A DNA stretch of 64,000 nt from Candidatus Peregrinibacteria bacterium (GTDB lineage: Bacteria; Patescibacteriota; Gracilibacteria; UBA1369; LOWO2-01-FULL-3): contig JAUUZY010000005.1 in NCBI GenBank assembly GCA_030592015.1, positions 400 through 64,399 on the forward strand, written 5' to 3'. The notes below the pieces were generated by a model. The model had not been told where the DNA came from. It was given only the letters and a program-made list of their open reading frames with translations, and did not search any database. Shown here one piece after another: positions 7,378 to 33,216 of this stretch. Position 1 is the first letter of the stretch. Every line of letters begins with the position of its first letter. The translations under genes and the position numbers were made by a program.

Positions 7378-8517
7378 CTAGTTTCCTGAGCATTGCCTGT
7401 TATTCATTGTCTCAACGCAGCTATAAACTTTATTTATAGCTGGGAGTCCATCAACTATGGCACTGTTAAGATTGTCCAATTCGCTAACCATAGCTTCAAC
7501 CGTAGCATCACTACCTTCTTTATACAAAGCCTCAAAGCGTGAGTTCATAATTTTCTGCATATTTTCTATTGTATCGTTGAATTCCTCGGATTCAATAGCA
7601 CCCAAAAGCAAGCCATAGGTAGGTCCGGAACTTCCAAACTCAGGGCTATAATATGAAAGATCGTCATATATTTCCTGGTATCCGGTTGCTGCATCCTGAT
7701 TGTTTATATTTAGCTGAACTAGGCCATCAAGGAATCCATCAAAGCTAGAATCGGGGAGTGATTCAACTAATTTTTCCACACGACCACCAACTCCTTTTTC
7801 AAGTTTTTCCCAGGCCGGCGCAACTCCACCGGCAGTCTTAATAAATTCATCCCATTTGTCTGAAACTGTCGACCATGAAGAGTTTTCGCAGAAAATATAG
7901 CTCTTTTTCTTGTCCTCGTATTTCAATTCCAACCTATTAAAGAAAACATCAAATTCTGTCTTTGCAAACTGTCCTGAATCCACATATCTCTCTTTCATGT
8001 CAGCATAAATCTTATTTCGAGAAGTAAATAGAGCCTCACCGTCCTCCCCAAATCTATATGTCAAAACATCGTAAGGAAGGTTAACAACAACAGAGCCATC
8101 AACAATATTTCTCACATAGTACAATTCCGCATTAATCTCGCTGTAAGCCCTTTTCATATTTGGAAGCTTCTGAGTGTTACAAGTCAAAAATGCATCTCTT
8201 ATATACCTCTCTATTTTATCCTGCTGATTTATCAGTGAGATAATGTCATTTGCCTGACATTGGTTTTTGTAGAGTACGTCCTCCCAGATAGCGGTATACC
8301 CTTCAAGGCCATCACTCCAAATTATTGATCGTAGGAACAAAATAAAATCAACATTCCCCTTAGAAATGCAACGCCCAGCACTAAGATCCCCATCAACATT
8401 AGGATCTATATCAGAATTGTCTTGCGCACTTGCCTGCATAGGGGAGACCAGAAGCAGCAATAAAAGCCCTAAGGAAAGGATGATTTTCAAACGAGTTTTT
8501 AGTGATTTATTATGCAT
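7378..8517 (-). CDS. Secreted Cys-containing helical hypothetical protein
   Basis: Signal peptide ending MQASA; Cys at CISK, CQAN, CNTQ, CENS and C-terminal CVETMNNRQC. Overlaps the upstream gene stop by 8 nt. Confidence 0.75.
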   Translation of the reverse strand: MHNKSLKTRLKIILSLGLLLLLLVSPMQASAQDNSDIDPNVDGDLSAGRCISKGNVDFILFLRSIIWSDGLEGYTAIWEDVLYKNQCQANDIISLINQQDKIERYIRDAFLTCNTQKLPNMKRAYSEINAELYYVRNIVDGSVVVNLPYDVLTYRFGEDGEALFTSRNKIYADMKERYVDSGQFAKTEFDVFFNRLELKYEDKKKSYIFCENSSWSTVSDKWDEFIKTAGGVAPAWEKLEKGVGGRVEKLVESLPDSSFDGFLDGLVQLNINNQDAATGYQEIYDDLSYYSPEFGSSGPTYGLLLGAIESEEFNDTIENMQKIMNSRFEALYKEGSDATVEAMVSELDNLNSAIVDGLPAINKVYSCVETMNNRQCSGN

Positions 8518-10339
8518 TTGGTTTGTTCTTTATTGCGTTACATTCATTATCAATTAGCTTGTACTGCCTGTTATAACCTTCAAAGAAAATTCTCATTTGT
8601 TTGATTTCAGGCAATGCAGTTTGATTAAATAGTTTTGTATTAGTTCCTTTATTTGATTCTTGTAGATTGGCAGCCTCAAGCAGCGCCTCGTTTCTAGCTT
8701 TATCCTGAACTCTAGAAACTTCATTAATTATCTCGGCTATGGTTGTTCCCTCAGGAGCTGTAGCCAAGAGGAAGTCAGTTTCGTAGTCCGTAGAGAATGT
8801 AGGTTGTATGCCAATTTGGAGATCAAGAAGCTCTGTATCACCTAAAAATGGTCTATATTTCTCCACAAAACTATTCCATTCCTCAAAAATATTCTTTCCA
8901 AGAATCAAATCATCATTAGGAGGAGTAGGAATAGGAGCAGCTATGGTAATAACCTGTAGATCAGGCATAACAAGGTCAAAGCCCCCCTTACACTTAGCGG
9001 ACTCAAAAATATTCCCGGTAACCTTATTTGGGATAAGAGTATGATTAAGAGTTTTCTTCATAAATTCATTTGTCTTTTCAACTTCGCAAAGTATACAACT
9101 GTCTCCAGGGTTGAAGCTTGAAACAGTCTTCCGAATCAATTCAGTATCCAGACAAATTCCGATCTTCGCTGAGAATCCTGGACCGGCTACACCGGCTGCA
9201 GCACCGGCAGATTGTCCAATCAAAGAGTCGTAGGCATTTCCAAGACTTGAAAATCCGGAACTACCAAAGGTACTATCCGCAGCAGCAGATCCTTCAGCAC
9301 CTCCCAACGCAGGACACCATGTGCTACCCCAGTCACCGACCGGAGCAGGGGAGACAGTTCCATCCGCAGCAACTATAGGCTGGGAAACTGATCGCGTCTC
9401 ATCCGTAGCAGGCACTCCGTCGTTATCATCACCATCTTCTACTACAACAGGATCATCAGATTCATCCGCTTCGGCCTCTTTCAAAGCAATTTTATCGGCC
9501 TCATAACTATTTGCAGCTTCAGCAAAAGGATCATCAACAGCACAAACATCAGACTCTAATTTTTCTATATCTCCAATAGCATCAGCAAATTCACTAATTT
9601 CACTTCCAGCACTATCAATACGAATATCAGTCTCAACATTCCCTTCTTCATCCAGAGGCTGCCTCATGACGGCCACAGGGCCTTCATCAGCGGCATAGTC
9701 GGACCGTTCGACAATTGGATCAGTTGGGATATATGGAGAGCTTAGCTCGCCTCCAAAAGGCTTTCCGACAGTATTGGGAATAACCTCAACAAACAAAATC
9801 TCTTCAATAATTGAAAGATCATGCACAAGATCAAAACCGGAATCAAACAGATCACCGTTAGCAAAAATCTCACTAGGCGCAATAGCGGCATCTATTTCCT
9901 GCTGTAATTCAAAAGTTTCATGAAGGTCTTCAAAATCTTCCTGAAGATTGTTAAACAGAATAAATGCATTCTCCTGAGTCAGGTCTGCAGAGCGAATGTC
10001 AGGATTATTGAAAATCGGAGTAATACTGCCACCTACAACTCTCTCTGCCTCCATATTCGTAAGCCCATACTTCTGCGCAACAAGATCAAGTGCATCATTT
10101 TCCGGAGCCACAAGAAGCTTCCCGTAAACCAACTGGTATAAATCTGTACCTTGCTTTGAAGGAGTGAAAATATCAGTCCATTCAAACAAATTTCCATTGG
10201 CAACGATTTCATCCCAAGTACTTGTCGGATCTTCATCGTTCTCACCATAGGCAACAAGATTTACATCCGCAGCAATCAGCATATAGCTTGCAGCTACTCC
10301 GGCAAATACTCCTATAATGATTGGCAAAAATCTTTTCAT
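8510..10339 (-). CDS. Secreted or membrane-anchored acidic Cys-containing hypothetical protein
   Basis: Likely start MKRFLPII at 10339 (track starts at 10366). N-terminal hydrophobic helix, acidic linker, Cys motifs WCP, GICLD, SCILC, AKCK, NECN. Confidence 0.75.
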   Translation of the reverse strand: MKRFLPIIIGVFAGVAASYMLIAADVNLVAYGENDEDPTSTWDEIVANGNLFEWTDIFTPSKQGTDLYQLVYGKLLVAPENDALDLVAQKYGLTNMEAERVVGGSITPIFNNPDIRSADLTQENAFILFNNLQEDFEDLHETFELQQEIDAAIAPSEIFANGDLFDSGFDLVHDLSIIEEILFVEVIPNTVGKPFGGELSSPYIPTDPIVERSDYAADEGPVAVMRQPLDEEGNVETDIRIDSAGSEISEFADAIGDIEKLESDVCAVDDPFAEAANSYEADKIALKEAEADESDDPVVVEDGDDNDGVPATDETRSVSQPIVAADGTVSPAPVGDWGSTWCPALGGAEGSAAADSTFGSSGFSSLGNAYDSLIGQSAGAAAGVAGPGFSAKIGICLDTELIRKTVSSFNPGDSCILCEVEKTNEFMKKTLNHTLIPNKVTGNIFESAKCKGGFDLVMPDLQVITIAAPIPTPPNDDLILGKNIFEEWNSFVEKYRPFLGDTELLDLQIGIQPTFSTDYETDFLLATAPEGTTIAEIINEVSRVQDKARNEALLEAANLQESNKGTNTKLFNQTALPEIKQMRIFFEGYNRQYKLIDNECNAIKNKPNA

Positions 10340-10340
10340 A

Positions 10341-10979: not shown

Positions 10980-10982
10980 AAA

Positions 10983-11579: not shown

Positions 11580-11581
11580 AA

Positions 11582-14500
11582 TTATTTTTTTACAGTTTCA
11601 ATAGTAACTTCATTACTCTTGGAGAACCAATGTTTCTCATCTTCAGTAGAAATTACACTGAAGAATATGTCTCCCGGAATTATATCAGCTCCATGCAAGA
11701 TGCTTGCAGTACATGGGCAGGTATTGCATTCAGGTGGTACGACATAAACACCACTTTCACCTTCCTGATAAACACCACCATCACTGAAATCATCACTTCC
11801 ATCCAAAGGATCGGTCAAATTCTTATGAACTTCATCCCCGTCATTAACCCCACCACCATCGGTATCGGCAACTGCAGGATTAGTTCCGTAGAGATTTATT
11901 TCTTCAGAGTCGGACAATCCATCGAAGTCTCTATCAGGTGGATCATCAGATGCATCCAGAGGATCAGTTCCATTCCTAACTTCATCCCCATCGTTAACCC
12001 CACCACCATCGGTATCGGCAATTTCAGGATCAGTTCCATACAGATTCGTTTCCTCAGAGTCGGTCAATCCATCGTCATCAATATCGGATGGATCATCATA
12101 TGCATCCAACGGGTTAGTCCCCAGATCAAGCTCGTCGCCATCATTTGTTCCTCCCTTATCACTGTCAGCATCAGTTGGATCAAGACCATATGAGCATTCA
12201 TCTGTATTGCTCACACCATCGAAATCCACATCTAAATCAGGATTTTGAATATCATATTTCTCCTCACAGAAATCAGACATGCCATCATTGTCATCATCAA
12301 TCTCAAAACAATTATAAGCTTCAAGAACTCTGGTCACCATTGTTACAAGCTCTGCTCGAGTCATCTCCTGTTCAGGATTGGCAGCTTCCTCAGTTGTGAT
12401 AATAAAATTATTCTGCAAAACAGCATTTCCAGTCATATAAGGAGTCAGGTTCTGTCCTGCAAGCATGAACGGATCATACCAAGGATCTCCAACATTTAGT
12501 CCCTCAAGATTAAGCACACCCTTCAGTTCAAGAGCTTCCAATATGATCTTCACAGACTCGGCCCTTGTAATAGTGTTTTCAGGCTTGAAAGGGGATTTGC
12601 CAGTAGCATTGTCTATCTCACCCTGATAACCATGAATAAGACCAAGTAATGAGGCCTCCTTCACAAATGGGTAGTACCAAACAAGGTCAGACTCACTATA
12701 TTGAATATCATTGAATTCAGTCCCAAGCTCATAAGATTCAGGTCTAGGAATAATACAAAGCATCTTTAGCAGAGTTTTTACAAATTCAGCCCTATTCACC
12801 AACTCCTGCGGATTAAATATAATTCCATCCTCGCTCTCCCGCCCTTCAATAATATCTTTTTTCTGTAACTCTTTGAGAATAGCAGCCAATTCATCATCAA
12901 CATCAATAAATTCTTTCTTGCTCAAACTAGTCTTCACAAAATCGGAAGATGGAGGAATATGCGCCTGAGCAAACGGCACATCATTCGGTCCAACTATCTT
13001 AACTCTTCTTTTTCCACTAATAACAGAGACATAAATCTCCGCCACAACTTTTCCATTATATATAAGTTCATAAATCAACGGATCAGCCGTATGATCATTC
13101 GCCTTTTTTATTAGTTCAACCCCATCAGCAAGGAAAATAACATTTCCAGCACTATCAACAATAGCGATCTGCTTCCCTTCAATCACATCCATCAAAGCGG
13201 CAGCACCCGGATAATCCGGATCATCAGCTGCAAATTTCACAAAGCTATATCTATCTGTAATATTTTCATCACTCACATGCACACCAGTCGCCAATTCAAA
13301 TATATTGTCCTCAAAATCAACTTCTTCCAGCACAACTACATCGGTATTCTGATCTGCAACCACGTGAATAGTCGCATAAACAGTGCCATTCGCATCCACG
13401 ATCTCAATTCTGGTTACAGTCCCGGGAGGATTGGCTTCCTCAACATTTATAAAGTATCCATCCATCAAATTTTCAACATTAGCTGTGTCAGGGTGAATTT
13501 CCGCAATTATTTCTCCGGCAGAATTCTCAACCAAGAGCATATCTCTCACAGAAAGATCATTAACCGTATAAACACCGGTTTCATCACTAAGATATTTTCC
13601 GTTCTCATCACTGGTCATAGTCTCAATCTTTTGGTTTTTCTCTACAGCCTTCAGATCACCGGCCACAACTCTATAAATAAGCCTTTTCCTCATAAGCGTA
13701 ACAGGCATATTAGGCAGAGTTTCACCTGTGGCAATTGAAGTTCTAGCAAGAGTTTCGTCCAATGTGATATTAGGAGCGGAAACATTCACCTTAATCTCCT
13801 GAGCCGAACTATTTCCAGACTGATCCACCACATGTAACAAGAATTTATGCTGACCAATATCTCCCTCATATTCGAATGGTCCAACTCTGAATCTTGGGTT
13901 GCTCCTATCATTTATAGCTATGCCATCACCATCTTCATCATAGGCGTAATTAATATCACTATAGAAAAATTGTCTCAGTTCTGTAGCTCTCTTTCCGTCC
14001 GGATCATAAGGTAAAGTCTCAAGATAGTAGGCAACTATTTCACCTGAACTATCAAAAGAATTACTCGCATCAATTTCCAGCTCCGTGAAAAGCGGAATAT
14101 CATATTCAATCTGACTTACAGCAGGGAATGGGCTGTCATTATCAGAACAGGACTGCGGAGCAATCACATTAGTAAATGAAGGAAGAGATTTCTCTCCATC
14201 AGCATTGATCGCATATATTTTTGGATAATAATTTCCATTTTCCAGCTCGATTGAAATACTTGGATTATTTGGGTCAGCCAGTTCAAGTACAAATGCATTC
14301 GGGAATTCTGCATCAGGATCAGCCACAGCCACATACCTCGCAACTGCAGTATTTTCATTTCCATCAGGAGTGCTGCCAATAAACACTTCATAGGCAACTG
14401 CATCCTTTTTTGCAATCCAGCTAATATCAACTTTTTTGTGATTCTCAGAAGGTGAGATAACACCCTGCACACTCGCACCTCCATCCACAACATAGTCGCT

Positions 14501-17500
14501 CACAGAGTTATTACCAAAGCCACCAGAAATCCCTCCAATCAGATTTCCCTTTGGATAATCCACCTCATTAGTATGATTTTCTTTCAGATAAACATCTCCA
14601 CCCATGGAGAAGATAATATCGAAATCACTATCACCATCAACATCATTGAACAAAGTATGTATTTCATTTTCCAATTCACTCGTATAGTTCAACACATTTT
14701 CACTTCCATTCCCGACTGCAACAAAGAATCCTATCGGAACAGGAACAGTAGCAGCTTCATCTGACTCCAGGTAATCATCAACATCAAAATCTATATTTGC
14801 AGCAAGCAGATTACTCGTATCAAGATCGCTCACGCCACTCACATCTCTGAGTCTCTCTTCTACAGCCTCACCAAAGAAACTGGATTCAACAGTTGTCTCG
14901 GTAGATACAGGTTCATACATCTTACTTGTAGAAAGAGCGACAATCTGTCTCACACTCTGATCATTGTCGACAAGAATCCTGCCAAATTCATTATAATCCT
15001 CGATCTCACCAAGTACTGTATTAGATTCATCCAAGCCCTTTGTATACGCAATTAGGGAGTCGCGAAGCTCGGCCATATGCCTCATCTCAGGAGTATCAGG
15101 AAGATCCTGAAGCAGTATATCCGCCTCAACTTCGGCAAGAGTTCTGTTTAGTATAGGATCTGAAGGATCCAAATATTCTTGAGTCGCAGTCAGATAATAT
15201 GTATCGGGATAATCAATCTGCTCCATATTATCCACATAGTCATTCAAGCTTTGATTAATGTTATTGAAATATCCTTCCACCTTAGCTATCTCAGGAGGAA
15301 GATAAGCACCGGCATCACCACTAATATCAGCACCGACTTCTTCAGCAGCATCCTCAATAGGTGAAGTAATAGGATCAACAACTCCTTCAAGCAAAGGCAC
15401 AGCAACATCAATAGCGGTTTCAGTAGCTTTCTTAAATGCAGTATCTACGGCATCATCCAGAACCTTCTGCCATGATTTCCCGCTAACTGTATTTACATTT
15501 TCAACCAAATCCATAACTTTCTCATTAAACTTATCGGCCCCATTTTTTAGAATCACATATATAAAGTCAGTCTCGATCCCCATATCCAATTTTGTAGTTA
15601 TCTTAATCTGTTCAACATAATCGTATTGAATTTCAGGCATCTGAACTCCAAGGTTTTTGATAAGAGGCAAGACAACCTGCACACTCGGCTGAGTCAAAGT
15701 CTCGATTTCAGTTGCAAGCCCCCATTCAGGAACAGGAATAAGTCCTTTCTTCAGTAGACAGAGGACGGCAAATATAGGCTTTAGATTGACAATAAGATCT
15801 CCAATAACATCAGGTAGTTGTGGGATCTTTGGCGGTCGAGGAAGGTCCGGCAATTGCGGTAATGGCAAAGGCGGAAGATCCGGAAGATCAGGCAGAGTGA
15901 AGGTAGGGAAGTCCAGCCAGTCAGGAAGATCAAATCCCGGAACTACTAATCGTAGCTCAGGAGATATCTCGGGAAGTGTAATAGTTGGTAGATCAGGAAG
16001 CCTTATCGGCTCAGGTTTGAACACAAGATCAGGCCAAACAATTTTTATACCGGCTTTTACCTGGGAAATATCAAAAACGATATCCGGCCACTTTGGCATA
16101 GGGATAATAGGGGGATCCGGAATAGCCGCAAAGAAACTCAAAAGTATTCCAAGCTTGCTAAATCTGTCATTTTTACACTGGTCACAATTCACTTGATAAT
16201 CAACAATCAGATCGAGCAACAATTTCCAGTCTCTGATAGTTCGGATAACATCCTCAATCGCTCTCATCCATGACTCTATAGTTTTCTGCTGTCTGCTAAT
16301 GTATCCACCTGTGTAATTCATTATCGCATCCATATAACAAATCAACTGAGTCGCATACTTTGCCTCAAGGTTCCTCCAAGTCAAAATATCTTTCGGTAGC
16401 CTTGAAATCTGGTCAATTTTGTCCATAGCCGCTCGCACAGACTTGATCAACTCTGTCATATCGAGAGTCACAGCATCACAAAGAGTTCTTCTCTCTTCAC
16501 TTATATTACATGTCCAATAATCTTCTATTTTCTGAATCTGCTCTTGTTCATATTCAATCCAAAGTACCGCTTGTCTCTTCCATTTTTCAACTTCAGCTTG
16601 AGAAATAGCCGGTACTCTTATAAACACCTCTTTTCCTTCAATCTGGAACAAAGGCATACTGTTTACAGCCCTCAAAAAGTCATGAACGGAAAGGAATCCA
16701 CCTCGATTTTTATCGAAGTTCTTGAGCGAAACAGCATGATCAGAAATTAAGCTATTCACATCAGGATAGATGAAATATAAGTCAGGTAAATCCAGTAATT
16801 TATTGAATATTTCATCGGTTTGATTATCCAGCCAGTTAGTAATCACACTTGGGAATCCGGGAATTCTGATATTCACAGCGCTGGAATACGATAGGGGAGA
16901 ATCAGGATCAGAATAATTGCTACTTGTATTGATAGCATCGGATCCGGCTGAATTTTCTCCATCAGATACAATAGTCGACATTCCCACGTCAGGATTTGAG
17001 TTAGAACTCTTCGCTTTTGCCACGGCATCATTGACCGGACCGAGAAGGTCAGGACATACACCTGCAGCCTGTACCGGCACTGCAGCAGCATAACAAGGTG
17101 ACATGTGTCCAATGTTTGGACCGGCACATATGGCAGTCCCAAGCCCACCTGTCAGAGTAGGGGAGATATACCACCTTACACTAGAAGTTAAATTTGAAGG
17201 GTAAAAAGGCATAACATACGGAGGATTCGGAGTTCCAATTGCAATCGCTGCAATCCCGGGAATCGGTCCATCCGGAGCAAGGAAAGCTCTATTGTACGGA
17301 ATCGGCAAACATCCTCCACCGGAACATCTCAGTAAGGTACTTACATTCTTGATCCCGTTGGCAATCGACTCAGAAAGATCTTGGTACTCCCCCAATGCAT
17401 CATCCCAAGAATCAACACTACCGTCATAATCGCTATCAGCGTTTTGTGAAGCCATTAACGCACTCATTCTATCTTGGAATTCTTCTGAGTTAGGATCCAC

Positions 17501-20500: not shown

Positions 20501-23500
20501 ATGACTCATAAGATCAGCCCTAATCATTATTGACGAATCAGAACCTGGAATAAGATTTATATCTAAATTTACCTCATCAAGAATATCGAATGTTTCCTGT
20601 GCCACTACATAATCCCTAAAGTCTATTTTGCTCGTATCGTTCCCAGCCTCACTCAGCAAAGTCTCCAATTCATAATCCAGAAGCACAGCAAAGAGCTCAA
20701 GATTTTCAATAATATCATCTTCAGAAAACAAAACAGTATCAGCAGTACCGGCAAAAGTACCAAGTTGAGTTCCAATCAGAGCGGCATTTATATCGGAGAT
20801 TTGATCAAGATGCGCACCTTCTTCCACAAACAAAGCAATTTGTGCAAAAGTATTATCCGCAACATTTCCAAATTCATCCTTCACAATAAGCTTCAAGTCT
20901 GTCTTCGATTGCTCATTGGCAACAAGCACAAGGGAGTCTGCCTTTATCTCTATTTGGCTAGGCTCACCTGCGACAAGGCTCAGTTCACGATCTAATACCG
21001 GATAAGGCTCACCCACAACCACAGCCCTTAGAGCAAAATCTCCACTTACAGTTCCGGCCCTCAAATAAACAGTAGCCACACCATTCTCACTCTGAACAAC
21101 CTGACCATTCTCAAAAACAACAATATCTTCCACATCCGAAATTACAGAGAATTCAACCTGATGAGTTCTACTGTTATCAAATTCTCCCAGATCGTCAAAG
21201 AGATGAACATTAATCATCATAAGAGATTGACCATCAGCAACCATTTCAATATTCGCCTCAAGTTCATATATGCTATCCGGATTTTTCTCAGCATCTATAA
21301 AAGGATTTTCACTATCAGGAATAAGAGCCAACATACTGTCAGAGAAAAGTTCAGCAACCGGCCTAGTTCGACCTATTGATTGTACAGTTGAGTCCAAAAA
21401 GTTTTTCTGGTAATCCTTCCATTGATAATACCTTAGCCAGTTATCCGGAGCTACAGTCTCAACATGCGCATCTTCTTCCTCAGTTACTTCTTCCACGATA
21501 TCCTCAACAATTATTTCTTCTTCAACCGGCTCTTCAAGCACATCCTCAGTTGTTTCATCCAATTCAACAAGCTCTGAGAGAAGTATTATTATATTTCCAT
21601 CTTCATCATATTCGACAGCATCACTGCCATCAGTAGCCCCACCACCATCAGTAGCCCTACTACCGTCAGCAATCTCACCACCACCATCGACAACATCGCC
21701 ACCATCAACAACCCCGCTACCATCAGCAACATCGCCACTACCATCGGCAACCTCACCACCACCATCAACAACCTCACCACCATCATCAACATCGCCACCA
21801 CCATCAACAACACCGCTACCATCAACAACTCCATCACCATCAACAACCCCACCACCATCAACAACATCGCCACCACCATCAACAACACCGCTACCATCAA
21901 CAACACCGCTACCATCAACAACTCCATCACCATCAACAACCCCACCACCATCAACAACCCCACCACCATCGACAACTCCACTACCATCGACAACACCGTC
22001 ACCAGCATCAGCAACCCCCAGAACATCTTCAGGCGATACATCACTATCTTTAGTAGCAAGATACTCAGCATAAGGATCAAACCCTAATTCATCGTCAGCA
22101 ACTAATTTATTTATTTTCTCCAAATCATCCTCGTCCAGACCGGCTTCATAAACAGTGAAACTCAAAATCTCCATTTTTCTATTGCTGCTAAGAACCTTCA
22201 CGTTGTTCGATTCAAGCCCGGACTCACTGCCCAGGTAAAGAGTAACCTCTCCGGATTTGTTCGTAGAATTCAAACTAAAACTAGCCTCACCTCCAACAAA
22301 AGTTTTTTGATTCGTATCAATAAATACCAAAACAGGATCATCTTCATCCTGATCAATGGTCAAAGTTAATGCTTCAGTGTTTCCAGTGTGACCTACCAAA
22401 TTTCCGTTTTCATCAATACCTTTTACACTAACTTTAACGGTATCTACACCGTCAGCGGAAAGAATAGGCTTATCAACAGTCAGCTCAAGTTTAGAAACAG
22501 GCAGAGCAGTAATAACTTCAGTATCTTCGGAAAAATCATCCTCAGCAAAAAGTTGGGACGCACCGCAAGACTCCTCAAACTCAAGCCCATCATCCCAGAC
22601 AGTTATAAACAAAGGCAGTGCAATAAGTGCCTCGATAAATTCCTGGGTTTCCGTCATGAAATCTCGCAACGGAACAAAATCATCATCGTTTTCATCAGGA
22701 CTAAGTCCCTGGTCCCGCGTTTCTACACCGGAACCTTCACCATCCGCAGAAACATAAATACTCAAAGGATCAAAACTGGCATCCGTTTCCTCAGGAATGT
22801 CTTTGTTGAAATTCATATCGAAATAATCCTTTTCACCATCCAGCACCAGGTACGCAGACTCATAACCGTTTTTCACGCTGTAGCCTGGAGGGGCAGGTCG
22901 CATAGTTGAATCAACAACAAAGGAAGTTTCATCCGGAGCAGGATTCAGATATTTCCTTAGAACATAATCATGCTTATCATCGATATTTAAATTCAGCCAT
23001 CCAATAGCATCATGTAATTTTAGTGTAGAAGCAGTCTCAAGATTAAAGCCACTAATAGGAACATCAACTTGAGATCTGGTAATTATAGAAAAATAATTAT
23101 TAATAATTTCATCACGAATATCTCTATAGTCACCTGGACGAACATCAGGATTTGGAATCGTATGACTTCCTGGCATCAAAGCTATACGCCAAGCAAGAGC
23201 ATCCAGATCTGCCTCCAATTGCGACAAATTCTCAACTCTAAATGAATTTGGGAAAATAACTTTTTCAGTATTACCCGGATAATAGTGCGGAGTGGTTCGA
23301 AGACTGCCAACGATAGCTTGAACATCAATAGAGTCATTTATAGGGCGAGGATCGGGATAGTCCATAGGGTGTTCAGGATCAGACGTCGGTGGCAACGGCT
23401 GTGCCTGGAAGGCTAGGTATCTAGGACTATCAATAGGCAAACTAAACGAAGCCATCGATTTTATCTGCTGAGAAATTGTATAGTCGGTCGGTTCATTATG

Positions 23501-26500
23501 ATAAACAAGACTGGAGATATCTTTGTAGAGATCAGGTTCAACCTTCAAAGTGATATCGGAATCAAAAGAAGTTAATTGATGTGGAATAGTATAAGTAGAT
23601 TCATGGGACAAAAGTTTTCTGGCAATCTCATCCATATTTTGACTTGGAATTCCATATTGAATATCGGCCTCATCAAAGTCATACCATTTTGTTTCATAGA
23701 CTCCATCCTCATTTGTGTCACGCCATTCATAGTCCACGATCCCATTAGCATTGTTGTCTATTCCATCAAAAAGTCCATAACGATCAGAAAACTCCTTCAA
23801 GCTAACAAGCTCACCATCACTAGCATTTAGAACAACATCACTAGCATTGTATTCATCCAAACTGAGCCAAACATCCTCAATGTCAGGAGAAACATCAGCA
23901 TCAGCTGCATTCGGAACAGGCTGAGTAATAAACTTTCCAACAGCTTTCAGATATCGCCCATACAAATCAATTGAAATATTGTATCCCTCAAAATCAACAT
24001 CGACAAGGGGACCAAAATCAAACTCGCTAGGCGGATTCAGCGGGTAGTCATAGTAATTCGAATCACTGGCAAGGCTTCCAACAGAAGGAAGACCCGAGTA
24101 GCAAGAATCAAAATAAACATCATCAATATCTTCATAGCTATACTCATCCGGGAATTGGAAAAGATCCATATGGTCATCGTAGTCAGCAGGGTTAGACGAA
24201 TTCTGATTGCCTTCCTTTTTTACATTTTCAGGAAATTTTAATTGGAACTCATCTTCACCGGGAATCTCTACCTTCAAAGGTGCAACACTTCCAGCAGGGT
24301 CGGCTATAGGCATAGAAGCAAGCTTTGGGAAACAGCGATCACTATTTTTCCCAGCAGAATTTTGAGAACAACCGGCATAACTGTCATAGCCCTTATTCCC
24401 ATATCCTCCACGCTCACTACCGGCTTGACGCATATCATTGATAGTGAAAATCGCACCATCACTACCGGACCTAAAGCTAAAGAAACGATCATCCTGAAAG
24501 TCAAATCCTTCAGGATATCCAATATCTGAGAGAAGAATAAATACTCTAGGTGCATTATTCATAAATCCGGAACCAATTGCTCCTTCGGCAGAAGTTAGTC
24601 CACTCTTATTCAAAGTAAAACTAAAGTTATCTTCCATCAGCTCTCCATCCCTATAGAATTCAATTCCAATATTGGCTTTGGTAGAATTTATATCTCCATT
24701 TTCCAAAGCTGCCATTTTTGATTCACCTACAGGAACACCAAACATTGGACCTTCAGCATCCATACTTACTTCATAGGCAAGATCGGGAATACTGCTCAAT
24801 TGATCGTTGTTAACCGCAGATATAAACCTCTGAACATCTCTATATGACCTTTCAATCGCCTGATCAAACGACCATCGATAATCAATCGTTCTATTATTTA
24901 CACGCACAATCAGGTCACCCTCTTGCAATATTCCCTCAAGTGGATTGCTATAATTAGCATAAAGATGATTATGGGTAAAAGCCGGAACTCCACGATTAAG
25001 ATCATTTTCAATATAAGCACCGGGAACAGACAGACCTGTAAGCTCATGAGCCTCACTTGCAGAAATTACTCGGGTATTCACTCCGCTAGTATGCACAGGC
25101 ATAGAAGTGGAAATGTTATCAGTCCTAAGGGCACGAGTAAGAATAGAATACTCACCATCAACCGCAATTGGGTTGAAATCAAGATTTTCATCGAAATATT
25201 CAGACTTGGTCGAACCAAGGAACACACTACATTGCTTTGGATTTTCCAGAAGCTCAGCATCAATTCCGTTTATGTAGAATTTCCCATTAGCCTCATTAAG
25301 ATAATGGAATCTATAGTCAGTCTGGAACACAAGAGGAATAGGGGAGATGTCATCAGACGCAAAATTAATGACAAAATCATCACTATCTCCAAAGTATCCG
25401 GATATCCTGGAAGACTCCAAAATAGGCAAAGGCTCATCAATAAGATCGATAATTTCCATAACTTTTTTCTCCACAGCAGTATTTACTTCCTTCAAGTATT
25501 TCTTGGAGAATTCGTCCTTGATAGTTATAAGAACGGCAATATTGTCCATATCATCAGGAGTATAACGACCGGTATTTTCCGCCCAATCATTCGACTGCGC
25601 CACATACTTACTAAAAATTTCATAATACGTAAGAAGAGACTGTTCTATAATTGTCTTAGTGAATACATCCGGAACACTGGCAAGCGCATCGTCACTTTGA
25701 AACGATCCCAAAAACTCGGCAGCATCCTCACTTGGAGGATCAATTGCCACCTCACTTGCAATATCCCCAATCAACTGCTTCGCCCAAAACTTGTTGTATC
25801 TGTTGTAGGCAAGGTGCTCAATATTATCTAAGTACTCTATATAGTGAGAATAAACATCAGGATTTATTTTTTCCTCCTCATGAAGAAGGTCAGCAAAGAA
25901 CATTTTCTTCTCAAATTCCGCAAAATCAGGATGCCCTTCATAGTAGAGGTGATTCTTATCAAAAAATGTAGCCAATTTCTCTTTTCCTTCCCTATCTTCA
26001 GAAGGAGCCCTGATTATTCCATGCCAAATCTCAGGCTTAGGGAAGTTACTATCAAAATTCCTCTCAAACGATTCCGATTCAGAACTATATAGATAAGCCT
26101 TGTCATCAAAGTCAGTATAAGGAAATAGGCTAATAAACTTATTCCCATCTTTATTTACAACAGGCATAGGAATATCACCCACCAATACAACCCCAGCCAG
26201 TCGATTATTCCCGTTGCCATCACCATTCTGGTAAAGGTTCTCCAATGCATTTGCTAAGTCCACCACAGAGTCTTCTTCCTTGTCATAAAAAATGATCTTC
26301 GCATCGGTGAGGTCATAATTTGAACTTATATCATCAGCATATCTCAAAATCCTTGCACCAAGTGTAGGGGCATCCAAGGAAGAATATTCATTCCCAAGCC
26401 CCACATAAGAACTGTCCCCAAGGCTATTGTCTACCACTATTGCAACCAGGTCATATACTATATCCGGATCATTTGGAGACTGAGCTTGAGCAACAGCAGC

Positions 26501-26620
26501 TTCCACATCTCTATTAAATGAAAAAGCATATGCAACAGGTAAAGGTACTGTTCCTGTAACAAGCATCATTAATACGAGAATTGAAGGGACGATTTTTCGC
26601 TGTATAAAGCTAAATTTCAT
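11582..26620 (-). CDS. Giant (~5,012 aa) secreted surface protein: C25-peptidase-like N-domain, PDZ-like segment, Ig-like (Big/invasin) domains, VVDGxG repeats, FG-GAP/VCBS repeats, DUF11-like domain, Cys-rich and Pro-rich core, PKD/FN3-like domains, SLH repeats, DxDxDG Ca-binding repeats
   Basis: Uninterrupted 15-kb ORF. Likely start MKFSFIQRK...PVAYA at 26620 (track starts at 26686). Motifs: GVVLVGDIPMP...PEIWHGII; LQEGDLIVRVNN; LSADGVDTVKVSV; DYNGDGSDDLL, DLNNDGFDDLIVG, DMNADGCEDLV; FNPQELVNRAEFVK, FKPENTITRAESVK; DTDGGGVNDGDE. Confidence 0.85.
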   Translation of the reverse strand: MKFSFIQRKIVPSILVLMMLVTGTVPLPVAYAFSFNRDVEAAVAQAQSPNDPDIVYDLVAIVVDNSLGDSSYVGLGNEYSSLDAPTLGARILRYADDISSNYDLTDAKIIFYDKEEDSVVDLANALENLYQNGDGNGNNRLAGVVLVGDIPMPVVNKDGNKFISLFPYTDFDDKAYLYSSESESFERNFDSNFPKPEIWHGIIRAPSEDREGKEKLATFFDKNHLYYEGHPDFAEFEKKMFFADLLHEEEKINPDVYSHYIEYLDNIEHLAYNRYNKFWAKQLIGDIASEVAIDPPSEDAAEFLGSFQSDDALASVPDVFTKTIIEQSLLTYYEIFSKYVAQSNDWAENTGRYTPDDMDNIAVLITIKDEFSKKYLKEVNTAVEKKVMEIIDLIDEPLPILESSRISGYFGDSDDFVINFASDDISPIPLVFQTDYRFHYLNEANGKFYINGIDAELLENPKQCSVFLGSTKSEYFDENLDFNPIAVDGEYSILTRALRTDNISTSMPVHTSGVNTRVISASEAHELTGLSVPGAYIENDLNRGVPAFTHNHLYANYSNPLEGILQEGDLIVRVNNRTIDYRWSFDQAIERSYRDVQRFISAVNNDQLSSIPDLAYEVSMDAEGPMFGVPVGESKMAALENGDINSTKANIGIEFYRDGELMEDNFSFTLNKSGLTSAEGAIGSGFMNNAPRVFILLSDIGYPEGFDFQDDRFFSFRSGSDGAIFTINDMRQAGSERGGYGNKGYDSYAGCSQNSAGKNSDRCFPKLASMPIADPAGSVAPLKVEIPGEDEFQLKFPENVKKEGNQNSSNPADYDDHMDLFQFPDEYSYEDIDDVYFDSCYSGLPSVGSLASDSNYYDYPLNPPSEFDFGPLVDVDFEGYNISIDLYGRYLKAVGKFITQPVPNAADADVSPDIEDVWLSLDEYNASDVVLNASDGELVSLKEFSDRYGLFDGIDNNANGIVDYEWRDTNEDGVYETKWYDFDEADIQYGIPSQNMDEIARKLLSHESTYTIPHQLTSFDSDITLKVEPDLYKDISSLVYHNEPTDYTISQQIKSMASFSLPIDSPRYLAFQAQPLPPTSDPEHPMDYPDPRPINDSIDVQAIVGSLRTTPHYYPGNTEKVIFPNSFRVENLSQLEADLDALAWRIALMPGSHTIPNPDVRPGDYRDIRDEIINNYFSIITRSQVDVPISGFNLETASTLKLHDAIGWLNLNIDDKHDYVLRKYLNPAPDETSFVVDSTMRPAPPGYSVKNGYESAYLVLDGEKDYFDMNFNKDIPEETDASFDPLSIYVSADGEGSGVETRDQGLSPDENDDDFVPLRDFMTETQEFIEALIALPLFITVWDDGLEFEESCGASQLFAEDDFSEDTEVITALPVSKLELTVDKPILSADGVDTVKVSVKGIDENGNLVGHTGNTEALTLTIDQDEDDPVLVFIDTNQKTFVGGEASFSLNSTNKSGEVTLYLGSESGLESNNVKVLSSNRKMEILSFTVYEAGLDEDDLEKINKLVADDELGFDPYAEYLATKDSDVSPEDVLGVADAGDGVVDGSGVVDGGGVVDGGGVVDGDGVVDGSGVVDGSGVVDGGGDVVDGGGVVDGDGVVDGSGVVDGGGDVDDGGEVVDGGGEVADGSGDVADGSGVVDGGDVVDGGGEIADGSRATDGGGATDGSDAVEYDEDGNIIILLSELVELDETTEDVLEEPVEEEIIVEDIVEEVTEEEDAHVETVAPDNWLRYYQWKDYQKNFLDSTVQSIGRTRPVAELFSDSMLALIPDSENPFIDAEKNPDSIYELEANIEMVADGQSLMMINVHLFDDLGEFDNSRTHQVEFSVISDVEDIVVFENGQVVQSENGVATVYLRAGTVSGDFALRAVVVGEPYPVLDRELSLVAGEPSQIEIKADSLVLVANEQSKTDLKLIVKDEFGNVADNTFAQIALFVEEGAHLDQISDINAALIGTQLGTFAGTADTVLFSEDDIIENLELFAVLLDYELETLLSEAGNDTSKIDFRDYVVAQETFDILDEVNLDINLIPGSDSSIMIRADLMSHGVRVDKYSGDIVIENINPNLGGFLGKSGQTIQKLEKKMVDGTLPEINAVFIPNNLAGDAEIVVDVPGFTTDSVTIKIEPGEPHRIELSASEDIVFSSGGDVQLEARILDRYGNLVVADNETLISFLPTTATEDFIEFTGARTALPLNGIATTTIKGSGISGKLNLVAESDWIMRDKISLDVRKRLDSDDVEGFAPRALYVSLLGGAFGNMFDENNLAETFLHAGDSQAVSSITASAEGDKLLIGVDGFGKIDLLSETVGMQVIQSTDSFPYQKVIFDDSVFGDELASMFMVPSDGTDLVLLEEEEKIEDEDGIYVERISFSDSNIEFVERNDAVFVENNGTVMLKVDSFGRITLNNESLEMRVPQQDIDGLESNDLAFAIYDRGEILTLITFKQSFENAVQIIPFADEATSFFPGIYVKLNTAADNFDFNSAFSRTSSDNPNGVYLIDKNSSLDAGRAPGFGQTSLEDVGSNSGLGFEGDNKHMLFFSAGNSVGESHIPYASEIGVIYGDPMIRLKLDGMVGLVSGLTGYTKDIGKPIFNGEQTIQQLIEFDYNGDGSDDLLLLYEDGLVRLLENEISNKRFRDKGYILKMSNGIFSATKIDLNNDGFDDLIVGTKESCNVDEVCMSQFINQGGSFEKESLELAINGKAYEMKSGDMNADGCEDLVTSDSAGNVRIFYNKVDGDSCIGLDTNHGNSWNFGFQLDPEVDISSTIFVNYPGMEQLSSTIPEYSDVEHTDTVEDNSGKFIQFTLPSDDPPVGNAEVEGYANAVTDLQNSLLNNENIATGDIPEQTYPKNYDFINIKQDVRFSRSTKSSVDVNGEVIALDDRVKYIITLNNNGGSNIVNMMLSDVSPPSMTLLEDTLQCMDSGCRDELEWAETGMSARSLVITGITVPAGGKRTISYSASVDRMPKVNFDIGNDFANYPLSALGHSYNNDPYLDLQIRPEINPSAELIYEYSIGVSNGRVNYLENRVSSEPTLEELFDEQAERTGGINPTDFDDVDPNSEEFQDRMSALMASQNADSDYDGSVDSWDDALGEYQDLSESIANGIKNVSTLLRCSGGGCLPIPYNRAFLAPDGPIPGIAAIAIGTPNPPYVMPFYPSNLTSSVRWYISPTLTGGLGTAICAGPNIGHMSPCYAAAVPVQAAGVCPDLLGPVNDAVAKAKSSNSNPDVGMSTIVSDGENSAGSDAINTSSNYSDPDSPLSYSSAVNIRIPGFPSVITNWLDNQTDEIFNKLLDLPDLYFIYPDVNSLISDHAVSLKNFDKNRGGFLSVHDFLRAVNSMPLFQIEGKEVFIRVPAISQAEVEKWKRQAVLWIEYEQEQIQKIEDYWTCNISEERRTLCDAVTLDMTELIKSVRAAMDKIDQISRLPKDILTWRNLEAKYATQLICYMDAIMNYTGGYISRQQKTIESWMRAIEDVIRTIRDWKLLLDLIVDYQVNCDQCKNDRFSKLGILLSFFAAIPDPPIIPMPKWPDIVFDISQVKAGIKIVWPDLVFKPEPIRLPDLPTITLPEISPELRLVVPGFDLPDWLDFPTFTLPDLPDLPPLPLPQLPDLPRPPKIPQLPDVIGDLIVNLKPIFAVLCLLKKGLIPVPEWGLATEIETLTQPSVQVVLPLIKNLGVQMPEIQYDYVEQIKITTKLDMGIETDFIYVILKNGADKFNEKVMDLVENVNTVSGKSWQKVLDDAVDTAFKKATETAIDVAVPLLEGVVDPITSPIEDAAEEVGADISGDAGAYLPPEIAKVEGYFNNINQSLNDYVDNMEQIDYPDTYYLTATQEYLDPSDPILNRTLAEVEADILLQDLPDTPEMRHMAELRDSLIAYTKGLDESNTVLGEIEDYNEFGRILVDNDQSVRQIVALSTSKMYEPVSTETTVESSFFGEAVEERLRDVSGVSDLDTSNLLAANIDFDVDDYLESDEAATVPVPIGFFVAVGNGSENVLNYTSELENEIHTLFNDVDGDSDFDIIFSMGGDVYLKENHTNEVDYPKGNLIGGISGGFGNNSVSDYVVDGGASVQGVISPSENHKKVDISWIAKKDAVAYEVFIGSTPDGNENTAVARYVAVADPDAEFPNAFVLELADPNNPSISIELENGNYYPKIYAINADGEKSLPSFTNVIAPQSCSDNDSPFPAVSQIEYDIPLFTELEIDASNSFDSSGEIVAYYLETLPYDPDGKRATELRQFFYSDINYAYDEDGDGIAINDRSNPRFRVGPFEYEGDIGQHKFLLHVVDQSGNSSAQEIKVNVSAPNITLDETLARTSIATGETLPNMPVTLMRKRLIYRVVAGDLKAVEKNQKIETMTSDENGKYLSDETGVYTVNDLSVRDMLLVENSAGEIIAEIHPDTANVENLMDGYFINVEEANPPGTVTRIEIVDANGTVYATIHVVADQNTDVVVLEEVDFEDNIFELATGVHVSDENITDRYSFVKFAADDPDYPGAAALMDVIEGKQIAIVDSAGNVIFLADGVELIKKANDHTADPLIYELIYNGKVVAEIYVSVISGKRRVKIVGPNDVPFAQAHIPPSSDFVKTSLSKKEFIDVDDELAAILKELQKKDIIEGRESEDGIIFNPQELVNRAEFVKTLLKMLCIIPRPESYELGTEFNDIQYSESDLVWYYPFVKEASLLGLIHGYQGEIDNATGKSPFKPENTITRAESVKIILEALELKGVLNLEGLNVGDPWYDPFMLAGQNLTPYMTGNAVLQNNFIITTEEAANPEQEMTRAELVTMVTRVLEAYNCFEIDDDNDGMSDFCEEKYDIQNPDLDVDFDGVSNTDECSYGLDPTDADSDKGGTNDGDELDLGTNPLDAYDDPSDIDDDGLTDSEETNLYGTDPEIADTDGGGVNDGDEVRNGTDPLDASDDPPDRDFDGLSDSEEINLYGTNPAVADTDGGGVNDGDEVHKNLTDPLDGSDDFSDGGVYQEGESGVYVVPPECNTCPCTASILHGADIIPGDIFFSVISTEDEKHWFSKSNEVTIETVKK
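11790..12310 (-). repeat. Tandem ~150-bp repeats encoding thrombospondin type 3-like (bacterial DxDxDG) Ca-binding motifs
   Basis: DGLTDSEETNLYGTDPEIADTDGGGVNDGDEV versus DGLSDSEEINLYGTNPAVADTDGGGVNDGDEV. DNA copies start near 11831 and 11981. Confidence 0.85.
21620..22015 (-). repeat. 18/21-bp tandem repeat encoding VVDG(S/G/D)G hexapeptides
   Basis: Plus strand shows recurring CCACCATCAACAAC / CTACCATCAACAAC units; protein reads ...GVVDGSGVVDGGGVVDGGGVVDGDG... Confidence 0.9.
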
Positions 26621-26750
26621 AGGTATGACTTGGAAGGTGAGGACACAATTTTCCAAGTATAAATTATAGCAGCTTTTACAGGGCAAAAACAGTTAGTCCA
26701 AGCGCCAAAATCGCTTTTGAATTGACAGGCTAGAGGGGGTGTGCCGTGAC

Positions 26751-27841: not shown

Positions 27842-27847
27842 GAATAT

Positions 27848-27881: not shown

Positions 27882-27910
27882 CAAGCAGTTCTAAATTAAG
27901 CTAACTACTA

Positions 27911-28411
27911 TTAGTTAGACAAAAGAATATGACACCATAGAGATGCATCTCCACTATCGGTAGGAGCTACTATGTCACCAGCTGCAGCACCTACACAGGT
28001 TGTATTTGCATTAACAAAAAGCTCAACATCTGCCCAGATACCAAAAGTATAAGTTCCACTACCAGGTGCATCTATATAAGTATAAACCTCTGCATCTTGT
28101 GGCCCAGTTGGTAGTGTACCACCAAATTCAGGCGCGAAAAGAGCACCCCAAGTGTCACCAGAAGTCCCTGTAAAGAATAGTCCTGTTGCAATTGCACCAG
28201 CTTCAGTAGGATAACCATTACCACTTTCTAGGTCATAGTTAACCAAAACTTTCTGAATCTTTTGAAGATCAGCGATCCTCTGTGTGTCACGCCCTTTAGC
28301 TGGCGCTCCAAGCAGTGTTGGCAAGAAAGCCACAGCGAGGATACCAATGATCGTAATAACGATCAGTAGCTCAATAAGGGTAAAACCCTTTTTGTTTTTT
28401 AACATTCTCAT
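27911..28411 (-). CDS. Type IV pilin (copy 1; probable major pilin)
   Basis: KKG|FTLIELLIVITIIGILAVAFLPTLL; has its own promoter and terminator. True start may be ATG 28405. Confidence 0.9.
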   Translation of the reverse strand: MRMLKNKKGFTLIELLIVITIIGILAVAFLPTLLGAPAKGRDTQRIADLQKIQKVLVNYDLESGNGYPTEAGAIATGLFFTGTSGDTWGALFAPEFGGTLPTGPQDAEVYTYIDAPGSGTYTFGIWADVELFVNANTTCVGAAAGDIVAPTDSGDASLWCHILLSN

Positions 28412-28437
28412 AGGAGTTAAGAATTAAACTTTCCTTA

Positions 28438-28467
28438 ATTATACCAATTATCCCATACGAAAAGCAA
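28438..28467 (-). promoter_or_regulatory. Putative promoter of pilin copy 1
   Basis: Minus strand TTGCTT - 18 bp - TATAAT with extended -10 (TGgTATAAT). Confidence 0.6.
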
Positions 28468-28474
28468 GTGCACT

Positions 28475-29734: not shown

Positions 29735-29735
29735 A

Positions 29736-31895: not shown

Positions 31896-31911
31896 AAGGG
31901 GTATTAATCAA

Positions 31912-33216
31912 TTAAAATGGTATTTCATCTTCAGGAAATTCATCTGCCATTGGATCGAAAGTCGTAATTGCTTCAGGCAGTACAAGCTCATCTTCAGTCA
32001 ACAGAAAGTCAATCTTTAAGCTGGCAATGAATCCATCGTCAAAGGATCCTGATTTACTGAAAGACTTCATACCTGCACCTTCAAAGAATTCAGAGGCATT
32101 CAGTTTATCAATCAAATTGGTGATAAGTGTAAAGTTTGTTGTATCAAATCTCTTAGTTTCGCCAACTATAGAAATCTTTCTTGATTCAGTATTGAAGTCA
32201 TAACTTTTATAAGTTATTCCACCAAGGTCGGTATAGAGATCAGCACTATACTGATTATCTACAGCAATAGTTTTTAAATTAATTTCATTTATAACATCAG
32301 ACCATCTTATTCTATTGTTCTTTATGTCCTGAACAATACTCAAGTCATTCACAATCAAACTGTTAACATTCTTGATCAAATCAGCAAGTTCTTCATTACT
32401 GAGAGCATCAAAGTCAGCATCCAAAATCAGTGAACTTAGTGCAGTATTGCCAACAAGATTAATAGTTTGACGATAATTCTTACTTTCCCTTTTTGCATCA
32501 TCATTTTCGTCATTAATGAGTTCATTGGATTTAATATTTAGCTTTGATGATAATTCCTGGTCAAACAAAATATCGAGTTGGCTTTGCTCAGTTATTTCTT
32601 TATCAATCAGAGATGCAGTGAATGGCTGAGTCAATTTATCAGTAGCAAGTAAGAATACTACTCTCAAATCATCTCTAAGCGATTCAAGTTCGGTCTCAGC
32701 CTTATCTTTGTCCGATTTTGTAGAAGTTTGGCTATCAGAGACTTCAAAATTTTGAGTAAAAGCATCTCCAAAGAAGCTAAACTCATCCAAATAAGCTTTA
32801 AGCTGTAAATAGTTATAAAAATTGAAATTGCTTTGTAGATTTATTATCTCAGAATTTGTGGAAGCAAGCTGTTTTGACACATTGGGAATACCAAAGGTGT
32901 CACTCGCAAATTCCAACTTATCAGTCAACTGAGAGGTAAAAAATACAATTGAAGCAAGGCTCACAAAAAGGAAAACCGCAAAAAGAGTTTTTAGGAAAAC
33001 CAGAAGAACACTCTTCTGTGGTGTTAGTCCTCGAAGTAGACTTGAATCAATCTCCGGTGCAGCCTCTAGGACTCCACCCTCTTCTTCTCCAGATTCCGTT
33101 GAGACAATATTTTTTATGAGGTCAGAGCTTTCACTAGCCTTTCCGCCTTTATCAAGTGGATTAGAAAATACTTCATCTCCTTTGGGCTTAGCTCCTTCAT
33201 TTGTTTTGTCAGCCAT
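31912..33216 (-). CDS. Extended PilN-like pilus alignment protein
   Basis: TM helix, long helical region, C-terminal RIRWSDVINEI...ISIVGET...LIDKLNASEFF pattern of PilN; upstream of the PilO-like gene. Confidence 0.6.
   Translation of the reverse strand: MADKTNEGAKPKGDEVFSNPLDKGGKASESSDLIKNIVSTESGEEEGGVLEAAPEIDSSLLRGLTPQKSVLLVFLKTLFAVFLFVSLASIVFFTSQLTDKLEFASDTFGIPNVSKQLASTNSEIINLQSNFNFYNYLQLKAYLDEFSFFGDAFTQNFEVSDSQTSTKSDKDKAETELESLRDDLRVVFLLATDKLTQPFTASLIDKEITEQSQLDILFDQELSSKLNIKSNELINDENDDAKRESKNYRQTINLVGNTALSSLILDADFDALSNEELADLIKNVNSLIVNDLSIVQDIKNNRIRWSDVINEINLKTIAVDNQYSADLYTDLGGITYKSYDFNTESRKISIVGETKRFDTTNFTLITNLIDKLNASEFFEGAGMKSFSKSGSFDDGFIASLKIDFLLTEDELVLPEAITTFDPMADEFPEDEIPF

Follow-up and report, generated by a model that had tools for sequence, protein, structure and literature searches.

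The window analysed here, a stretch of 64,000 nucleotides from the genome of a Candidatus Peregrinibacteria bacterium (GCA_030592015.1, contig JAUUZY010000005.1, positions 400 to 64,399 of the forward strand), carries on its minus strand, from 33216 to 7378, twelve consecutive open reading frames (ORFs, called with translation table 11) that code, in this order, for a PilN-like protein, a PilO-like protein, PilB, PilC, three pilins, a giant surface protein and four small proteins, named S1, S2, S3 and S4. The block formed by the giant and S1-S4 keeps its arrangement throughout the order to which the bacterium belongs, and PilB and PilC genes stand upstream of it in most of the loci that could be judged. 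From the genes and domains we tentatively read the locus as coding for a surface apparatus for host- or cell-contact, in which a filament and the giant block would work together, a reading that we consider plausible though slightly on the doubtful side of even.

In this proposed apparatus, the PilN-like and PilO-like proteins, a short PilB, PilC and one to four major-type pilins would make up a non-retractile filament machine (unit A). The giant would be exported by Sec and tied to the wall by its SLH region, displaying immunoglobulin (Ig)-like, FG-GAP and TSP3 parts together with two orphan modules, and S1-S4 would be its four secreted, translationally coupled partners, helical and with conserved cysteines, so that giant and partners (unit B) would form a fixed assembly of several proteins at the cell surface. 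The pilus would tether at long range, after which the giant complex would adhere closely. That S1-S4 bind the giant, that filament and giant cooperate and that a host cell is the target are steps that we infer from the arrangement of the genes.

Organisation and borders of the locus

An earlier note on this DNA, made from the sequence alone, had listed the same twelve minus-strand genes in the same order, and ORF calls, Pfam matches and scans of orthologues agree with it. The tight spacing that it reported for the last five genes was also recovered: the giant and S1 genes are 2 bp apart, S1 and S2 are 3 bp apart, S3 and S4 overlap by 8 bp, and S2 and S3 either overlap by 26 bp, if S3 is started at its first ATG, or lie 1 bp apart, if it is started at its second (MKR...). 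The terminator that these genes were said to share was found again past S4, and a second terminator-like hairpin lies at the other border of the locus (Table 1), with no comparable hairpin in the spacers between the twelve genes. Because such hairpins stand at the two ends only and the last five genes are tightly packed, the twelve genes are taken to be one bounded unit, a single long predicted operon.

Housekeeping genes flank the operon on both sides (ThrRS, UvrA, L10, L7/L12, MiaA and RecJ), and no mobile-element marks were seen around the locus. The source genome measures 1.2 Mb in 75 contigs and is 90% complete, the window being its contig C27, and the stretch occurs in a cold-seep metagenome run. 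None of the runs listed as containing the stretch is recorded as RNA. One metatranscriptome of the same study shared next to none of its sequence words and gave a single partly matching contig (90-95% likeness, 40 bases), which is no evidence on expression.

Table 1. Positions of the operon genes, of the parts of the giant protein and of bordering features in the window
Feature	Position	Strand	Remarks
L10-like ORF	33885-34418		upstream neighbour
L7/L12-like ORF	33342-33836		upstream neighbour
Terminator-like hairpin	33292..33327	-	closes upstream rplJ-rplL unit; upstream operon border, just 5' of the first gene
PilN-like bitopic membrane protein, 434 aa	31912..33216	-	one transmembrane segment, aa 67-99; PF05137 sub-threshold, E 0.14
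PilO-like bitopic membrane protein, 212 aa	31257..31895	-	PF04350 E 0.094 in window copy
PilB-type assembly ATPase, short form, 506 aa	29736..31256	-	T2SSE (PF00437) E 1.1e-126
PilC platform protein, 419 aa	28475..29734	-	T2SSF (PF00482) E 5.5e-53, two stretches
Pilin 1, 166 aa, class III signal	27911..28411	-	N_methyl (PF07963) E 9.5e-10; two C-terminal Cys, 139 and 160
Pilin 2, 162 aa	27290..27778	-	N_methyl E 3.9e-9, T2SSG E 4.9e-5; 57% identity to pilin 1
Pilin 3, 160 aa	26792..27274	-	N_methyl E 7.5e-8, T2SSG E 4.7e-4
Giant secreted surface protein, 5,012 aa from ATG	11582..26620	-	Sec-type signal peptide
Giant, N-terminal conserved domain, aa 60-420	25361..26443	-	from alignment; no Pfam match, no family
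Giant, Ig-like domains (Big_1/Glyco_hydro2_C5-like, Invasin_D3)	21011..22489	-	Pfam
Giant, 18-bp tandem repeat, 17.6 copies	21676..22004	-	Gly-Val-Asp-rich units; poorly conserved stretch
Giant, FG-GAP repeat	18662..18847	-	FG-GAP_3 E 1.6e-7; in conserved stretch aa 2500-2700
Giant, DUF11-type repeat, below cut-offs	17738..18049	-	Pfam 21.3 against 24.6 bits; TIGR01451 21.8 against 24
Giant, C1 module, aa 3090-3760	15341..17353	-	best-conserved part; no family
Giant, SLH region	12251..13003	-	35.4 bits, E 1e-8, cut-off 20.8 (region scanned alone)
Giant, bacterial TSP3 repeats (calcium-binding type), approximate span	11800..12250	-	TSP3_bac E 2.5e-11, 4 stretches
Giant, 150-bp repeat in TSP3 part	11828-12108		
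S1, secreted, 198 aa	10983..11579	-	no family; distant paralogue of S2
S2, 212 aa, N-terminal hydrophobic segment	10341..10979	-	no family; C88 and C97 invariant, C211 near-invariant
S3, 618 aa, N-terminal hydrophobic segment	8510..10366	-	no family
S4, secreted, 379 aa, predicted all-helical	7378..8517	-	AF2 predicted local distance difference test (pLDDT) 75.3; no fold match
Terminator-like hairpin past S4	7339..7369	-	14 pairs, T-rich tail

Pil genes of the operon and of the genome

PilB, PilC and the pilins were recognised directly in Pfam, the three pilins being 50-57% identical to one another. For the PilN-like and PilO-like proteins the window copies gave no Pfam match at E<=0.01, and the two labels hold because orthologues scanned singly match these families: PilN in 16 of 35 orthologues of the first gene (best E 3e-5, one-by-one scan) and PilO in 22/36 orthologues of the second (best E 6.1e-6).

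The earlier note had listed secretin, PilM, PilT and prepilin peptidase as absent from the window, and indeed none was found there. In the rest of the genome, PilT-like genes lie on contigs C23 and C64, PilM on C23, where it adjoins PilT, PilB and PilC, and peptidase A24 (prepilin peptidase) on C67, giving totals of five PilB-like and two PilT-like ATPases with the giant-linked PilB included. A search of the genome, which is 90% complete, for the secretin family PF00263 gave nothing at E<=1. In each of five complete genomes of the order, the giant-linked PilB (420-504 aa by open frame) is accompanied elsewhere by one or two PilB genes of greater length, and there is one PilT-like gene. This tally indicates that the linked machine is a second, separate system without its own retraction ATPase, and the pil set of the operon is accordingly described here, on its gene content, as a second type IV machine with no retraction ATPase beside it.

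Two further pil-related sequences were encountered. A 4.4-kb contig of the same assembly (C22; L126:240-4369, G000), which ends inside PilC, holds a second PilN-like/PilO-like/PilB/PilC set whose PilB is 80% and whose PilC is 56% identical to that of the operon; it may be a true paralogue, or a contig of a related organism in the bin, and the genome has a single giant N-domain. In the window itself, a 551-aa membrane-anchored protein of no Pfam family and without a class III signal (56714-58369, plus strand) ends in about 130 residues with roughly 40% identity to the globular portion of the three pilins, so that the product is a pilin head fused to an unrelated body.

The same genes could also belong to a device of the type II secretion system (T2SS) kind, in which a short pseudopilus would push or erect a folded, disulfide-bonded giant, together with S1-S4, through peptidoglycan and S-layer, and which would serve export or assembly and not adhesion. 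The locus has E-, F-, G- and L/M-like parts only and no PilT or PilM; T2SSG, the major pseudopilin family, matches two of the three pilins, if weakly, and T2SSM_b matches 3/36 of the PilO-like orthologues. Sec signals and conserved cysteines, both features of T2SS substrates, are present in the presumed cargo. The giant genes of Omnitrophota are, in the accessible text of one report, generally preceded by a T2SS-like locus (10.1101/2023.11.21.568195). We nevertheless judge such a device to be unlikely. The genome search found no secretin, which would not be expected in any case if the cell is single-membraned, and in a single-membrane cell a Sec-exported, SLH-anchored protein needs no extra secretion step; moreover, the block occurs in other orders without adjacent pil genes. 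The pilins carry a C-terminal Cys pair, which we take to be typical of true type IVa pilins, and their copy number at the locus varies from one to four among relatives, a better fit to an exposed filament. Pfam matches to GspH-K or GspC were absent among the twelve proteins, for which no aimed search was made.

The giant protein

The giant ORF (11582-26686) has 5,034 aa if read from a TTG and 5,012 aa from the ATG at 26620, and ten orthologous giants that were fetched whole were all intact, at 3,783-5,590 aa. Conservation among them peaks at aa 100-400, 2500-2700 (FG-GAP), 3100-3700 (C1) and 4600-4800 (SLH), and is low at aa 600-700 and 1500-1800 (7-11% identity, many gaps), the latter stretch holding the 18-bp repeat. 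Variable stretches set between conserved modules in this way suggest a surface under selection, for which they are as expected. The GC skew is extreme (-0.38) at the 18-bp repeat (21676-22004), within the least conserved stretch of the giant.

No enzyme domains were found in five giants (that of the window and four orthologues), and their content is of adhesin type. Module C1 shows invariant Cys, a CxxC motif and proline-rich runs in the alignment and matched neither Pfam nor PDB entries. Sequence and profile searches of PDB with the N and C1 modules of the giant and with S3 and S4 gave generic helical proteins at a best E of 0.06 or weaker. For the N-terminus of the giant, ESM Atlas offered only a weak gingipain-type (Peptidase_C25) lead (rank 14, score 0.87); a search with PF01364 found nothing in the genome, but control genomes gave no match either, and the lead is unconfirmed.

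The SLH region covers about 220 aa, with one repeat scored, and has more than 20 paralogous regions in the genome, so that SLH anchoring is the general way in which this organism holds its surface proteins. Two further SLH proteins are encoded in the window (37657-39156, plus strand, E 1e-20; 42806-44128, minus strand, E 4e-27). A LytR-CpsA-Psr domain, of a family that attaches wall polymers, was found in a 706-aa protein (52281-54401, minus strand), which may bear on the secondary wall polymer bound by SLH domains. Two orthologous giants from two other families of the order (L129 of G025 and L133 of G037) carry a second, internal SLH and TSP3 segment, which would give them two attachment points on the wall.

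The four small proteins S1-S4

A hydrophobic N-terminal segment starts each of the four small proteins, and none of them matched a Pfam or NCBIfam family. The earlier note had recognised no family for them, and the searches of Pfam and NCBIfam with all four, and of PDB and solved folds with S3 and S4, came back equally empty. Foldseek against PDB gave a best E of 1.0 for the model of S4 and 0.48 for that of S3; VIA-align wide reached best Z values of 6.8 (S4) and 6.2 (S3) with generic bundles and coiled coils, below the level that is meaningful with this tool for helical proteins; and ESM Atlas had no usable match for S4. In the S3 model (pLDDT 62.9), aa 70-190 form a helical domain predicted with confidence; the middle is acidic and disordered, and the Cys-rich C-terminal part is poorly modelled. 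S1-S4 might conceivably be a multi-component set of alpha-helical pore-forming toxins of the ClyA/Hbl/Nhe type, an idea that is not advanced here; chains of that type did not appear in any fold or sequence search, which does not speak decisively against it.

S1 and S2 are related to each other (hhalign probability 96%, E 3.7e-9, 168 columns), and hhalign of S2 against S3 and against S4 gave nothing. A match of S1 to S4 at 77% hhalign probability was not counted, the aligned stretch including signal peptides. S2 and S3 were also considered as non-canonical pilins and dropped, their N-termini being without the Gly/Phe...Glu class III motif.

The description of these proteins as Cys-helical in the earlier note stands as regards the cysteines, which are conserved in the alignments of all four; helical structure was predicted for S3 and S4, the only two that were folded. 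In the window copies each S protein has a Cys at most 10 residues from its C-terminus, and the number of Cys is odd in mature S1, S2 and S3. Intermolecular disulfides are possible on these grounds, and the cysteines probably staple the proteins by disulfide bonds or link them together. The fixed order and tight coupling of the S1-S4 genes further suggest subunits made in set proportions. A complex prediction for S3 (aa 45-618) with S4 (aa 32-379) scored 0.02 against a mark of 0.32, had no controls and counts neither way.

Conservation within the order

One genome per species was scanned, among records titled Candidatus Peregrinibacteria, Peribacteria or Gracilibacteria, which yielded 73 distinct loci. 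The recognisable genes follow the order giant-S1-S2-S3-S4 on one strand in 73/73 of them, S3 being present in all 73, S2 in 71, S4 in 68, S1 in 66 and the C part of the giant in 60, with the misses mostly at contig ends. S3 was found in 38/41 relatives. Of 121 genomes of the order, 114 have the N-domain of the giant (112/118 high-quality ones), as one gene per genome among the matches listed, in frames of about 3,500-6,100 aa, or shorter where contigs are cut. Two records titled Nitrospirota/Nitrospirae (L049 and L050) contain an S1-S4 block with about 39% identity to S3 of the window and are probably misbinned Peregrinibacteria contigs.

Ten relatives were compared over about 40 kb, and all twelve gene classes were present in the same order in seven. 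Among the other three, G037 is without only a detectable S1, in G028 the giant, PilB and PilC were recognised together with a weak S3, and the contig of G022 breaks off within the giant. Nine of the ten could be judged, and all nine (9/9) have PilB and PilC upstream of the giant. For 40 further genomes, the 9 kb preceding the giant gene on its strand were then inspected: a pilin stands directly upstream in 38, and 31 have PilB and PilC in the same orientation. The nine genomes in which PilB and PilC were missed comprise four with less than 4 kb before the contig end and five with the full 9 kb, which gives 40/45 judgeable loci when both samples are pooled. The earlier note had proposed to examine the synteny of the five-gene block and its linkage to pil genes, and within Peregrinibacteria this check, set beforehand, bore the proposal out in both respects, with the 73/73 and 40/45 loci just given.

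These counts bear on the possibility that no functional link exists and that the pil genes and the giant block have merely been inherited side by side within one order. Same-strand adjacency extends over many families of the order, a pilin almost always stands directly upstream, no terminator-like site separates the two units, and small, fast-evolving genomes seldom retain gene order without selection. Mere neighbourhood is therefore, in our view, very unlikely, even with the block standing alone in 10/11 genomes of other orders.

Distribution beyond the order

In a phylum-wide sample, S3 was detected in 6/6 genomes of the order, in 3/11 of other orders of the class and in none of 284 from other classes. 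A profile of C1 matched 148 of 201 genomes of the class (28/28 in the order and 120/173 outside it), many of the matches being interrupted only by TGA, as in TGA-recoded lineages, and a deeper profile of S3 matched 121 of the same 201 genomes. By family, C1 and S3 were both at 0/9 in f22 and both at 0/6 in f153, at 15/15 and 14/15 in f155, and at 4/27 and 0/27 in f18, an agreement that is descriptive only, kin not being independent. An exhaustive profile search found C1 in 597 of 1.84 billion representative proteins; among the 150 of these matches that were listed, most have 3,000-6,100 aa and the rest, at 737-2,988 aa, were taken as fragments.

Gene order was also inspected in other orders. 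Of ten such genomes, seven have S2 and/or S3 immediately downstream of the giant, and two have the complete S1-S4 set there. Because the block is class-wide but pil adjacency was seen in only 1/11 genomes of other orders, we conclude from its distribution that the giant-plus-S block is older than its pilus link, and that the pil fusion marks this order.

A distribution of this kind may also be read as that of a core envelope part. The giant and S1-S4 would then form, for example, a scaffold associated with the S-layer, or a collar at the sites where appendages pass through the wall, with no direct role in recognising other cells, and the pil adjacency would reflect shared envelope biogenesis or regulation. 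Near-universal presence in the order, as a single gene per genome among the matches listed, and wide presence in the class agree with such a part, as do the SLH anchoring, which is double in some orthologues, the many other SLH proteins in the genome, and the position amid housekeeping genes without mobile-element marks. On the other hand, Ig-like, FG-GAP, DUF11-type and TSP3 parts are typical of adhesins, and the long, poorly conserved, repeat-bearing stretches suggest diversifying exposure. Families f22 and f153, moreover, are without both giant and S3, so the block is not indispensable to this type of envelope. A purely structural role is, on balance, improbable.

Several observations weigh against the proposed cooperation of filament and giant in cell contact. 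The SLH anchor, with its second internal copy in two orthologues, fixes the giant to the wall of its producer, which argues against an adhesin at the pilus tip. No minor pilins were identified at the locus, where three similar major-type pilins are seen, in the course of searches not aimed at minor pilins. Five genomes of the order (L175, L178, L192, L194 and L201) have a pilin beside the giant and no PilB or PilC within 9 kb. Outside the order just one of the ten genomes has a pil gene beside the giant, and that gene is PilB alone, while the eleventh (G236) has giant-S2-S3 and no pil gene. The block persists in this way without adjacent pil genes and has no need of a neighbouring pilus machine.

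A bolder proposal receives less credence from us than the cooperating apparatus and is more doubtful than not. The giant and S1-S4 would be a conserved multi-protein device specific to the class (Peregrinibacteria-Gracilibacteria-Absconditabacteria), with which these episymbionts or predators would dock onto other cells and perhaps breach them; S1-S4 would be structural subunits joined via their C-terminal cysteines, and the Peregrinibacteria would have captured their own non-retractile type IV filament system for it, giving one integrated apparatus. The claim of the earlier note that the block works with the pilus is weakened outside the order by the scarcity of pil adjacency there (1/11 genomes), whatever the strength of the linkage within it.

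Comparison with described systems

The following comparisons draw on the accessible parts of the papers cited. No description of the five-gene block or of its pil fusion was found in this literature; subscription journals and supplements may hold one. In Nanosynbacter lyticus (Saccharibacteria), mutants have shown that a second type IV pilus (T4P-2), which is without a retraction ATPase, promotes or speeds host binding (PMC12206443); this is the closest precedent that rests on experiment. The present locus resembles it in having a second PilB, PilC, PilN and PilO set beside a canonical one, with no retraction ATPase in the set, and differs in that the set is joined in an operon with a wall-anchored protein of 5,000 aa and four orphan secreted proteins. 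Compared with T4P-2 it is also without PilM, minor pilins were not seen, and it belongs to a different lineage and is known from its genes alone.

The closest analogue met with is in Omnitrophota, where giant genes are preceded by T2SS-like loci and a role in prey contact has been proposed (10.1101/2023.11.21.568195). The likeness is in arrangement and domains: a very long surface gene comes directly after GspE/GspF-like genes and genes whose products have class III signals, and its product has adhesion-type domains that include thrombospondin-type repeats. The Omnitrophota loci comprise a GspD secretin and more than ten subunits, followed by PilZ genes and sugar importers, whereas here there is no secretin, the giant is SLH-anchored and four conserved small partners follow. 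Because this theme of giant genes is in print, the kind of arrangement is not wholly undescribed; of the candidate undescribed machine put forward in the earlier note, the block itself, not met with in the literature, remains, while a giant behind T2SS- or T4P-like genes does not. Taken as a whole, what that note observed is confirmed and what it made of it is partly supported.

Vampirococcus lugosii has ten giant proteins of up to 4,163 aa with DUF11 and integrin-type domains, which are proposed to mediate attachment together with type IV pili (PMC8080830). Compared by description, it belongs to the same larger clade, and TGA-recoded genomes of the class carry C1; unlike the present case, no conserved block of four partners and no link to pil genes is described in the accessible text of that paper. 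The PilY1/PilC adhesins are likewise large Sec-exported proteins with a beta-propeller-type part, encoded beside pilin genes. The giant, in contrast, is five times longer and SLH-anchored to the wall, there are no identified minor pilins for docking at the tip, and no Neisseria_PilC-type domain was matched in Pfam scans of the whole giant (E<=0.01) or of its parts (E<=1).

More generally, large exported cysteine-rich proteins, S-layer, T2SS and type IV pilus genes are mentioned for Peribacteria genomes (PMC4736985), and a survey found Peregrinibacteria rich in proteins of more than 5,000 aa without a COG assignment (PMC11573180). Pam, a new pilus system of the candidate phyla radiation that works by donor-strand exchange, is known from other classes (PMC13278184) and is unrelated to this locus.

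Significance

It is an open question how ultrasmall Patescibacteria beyond the Saccharibacteria recognise other cells and keep hold of them, and the locus offers a concrete, lineage-conserved target for it: a giant protein with four fixed partners, in nearly all genomes of the order and in most of the class. Five families or modules without known fold or function (S1/S2, S3, S4, and the N and C1 modules of the giant) join the candidates for structural work. To our knowledge, there is no cultured member of this order; since TGA-recoded relatives carry the giant module, the idea of cell contact may be testable in cultured predators of the Absconditabacteria group. In Peregrinibacteria, the giant block is joined to a pilus machine of its own, and the two may together serve contact with a host or another cell.

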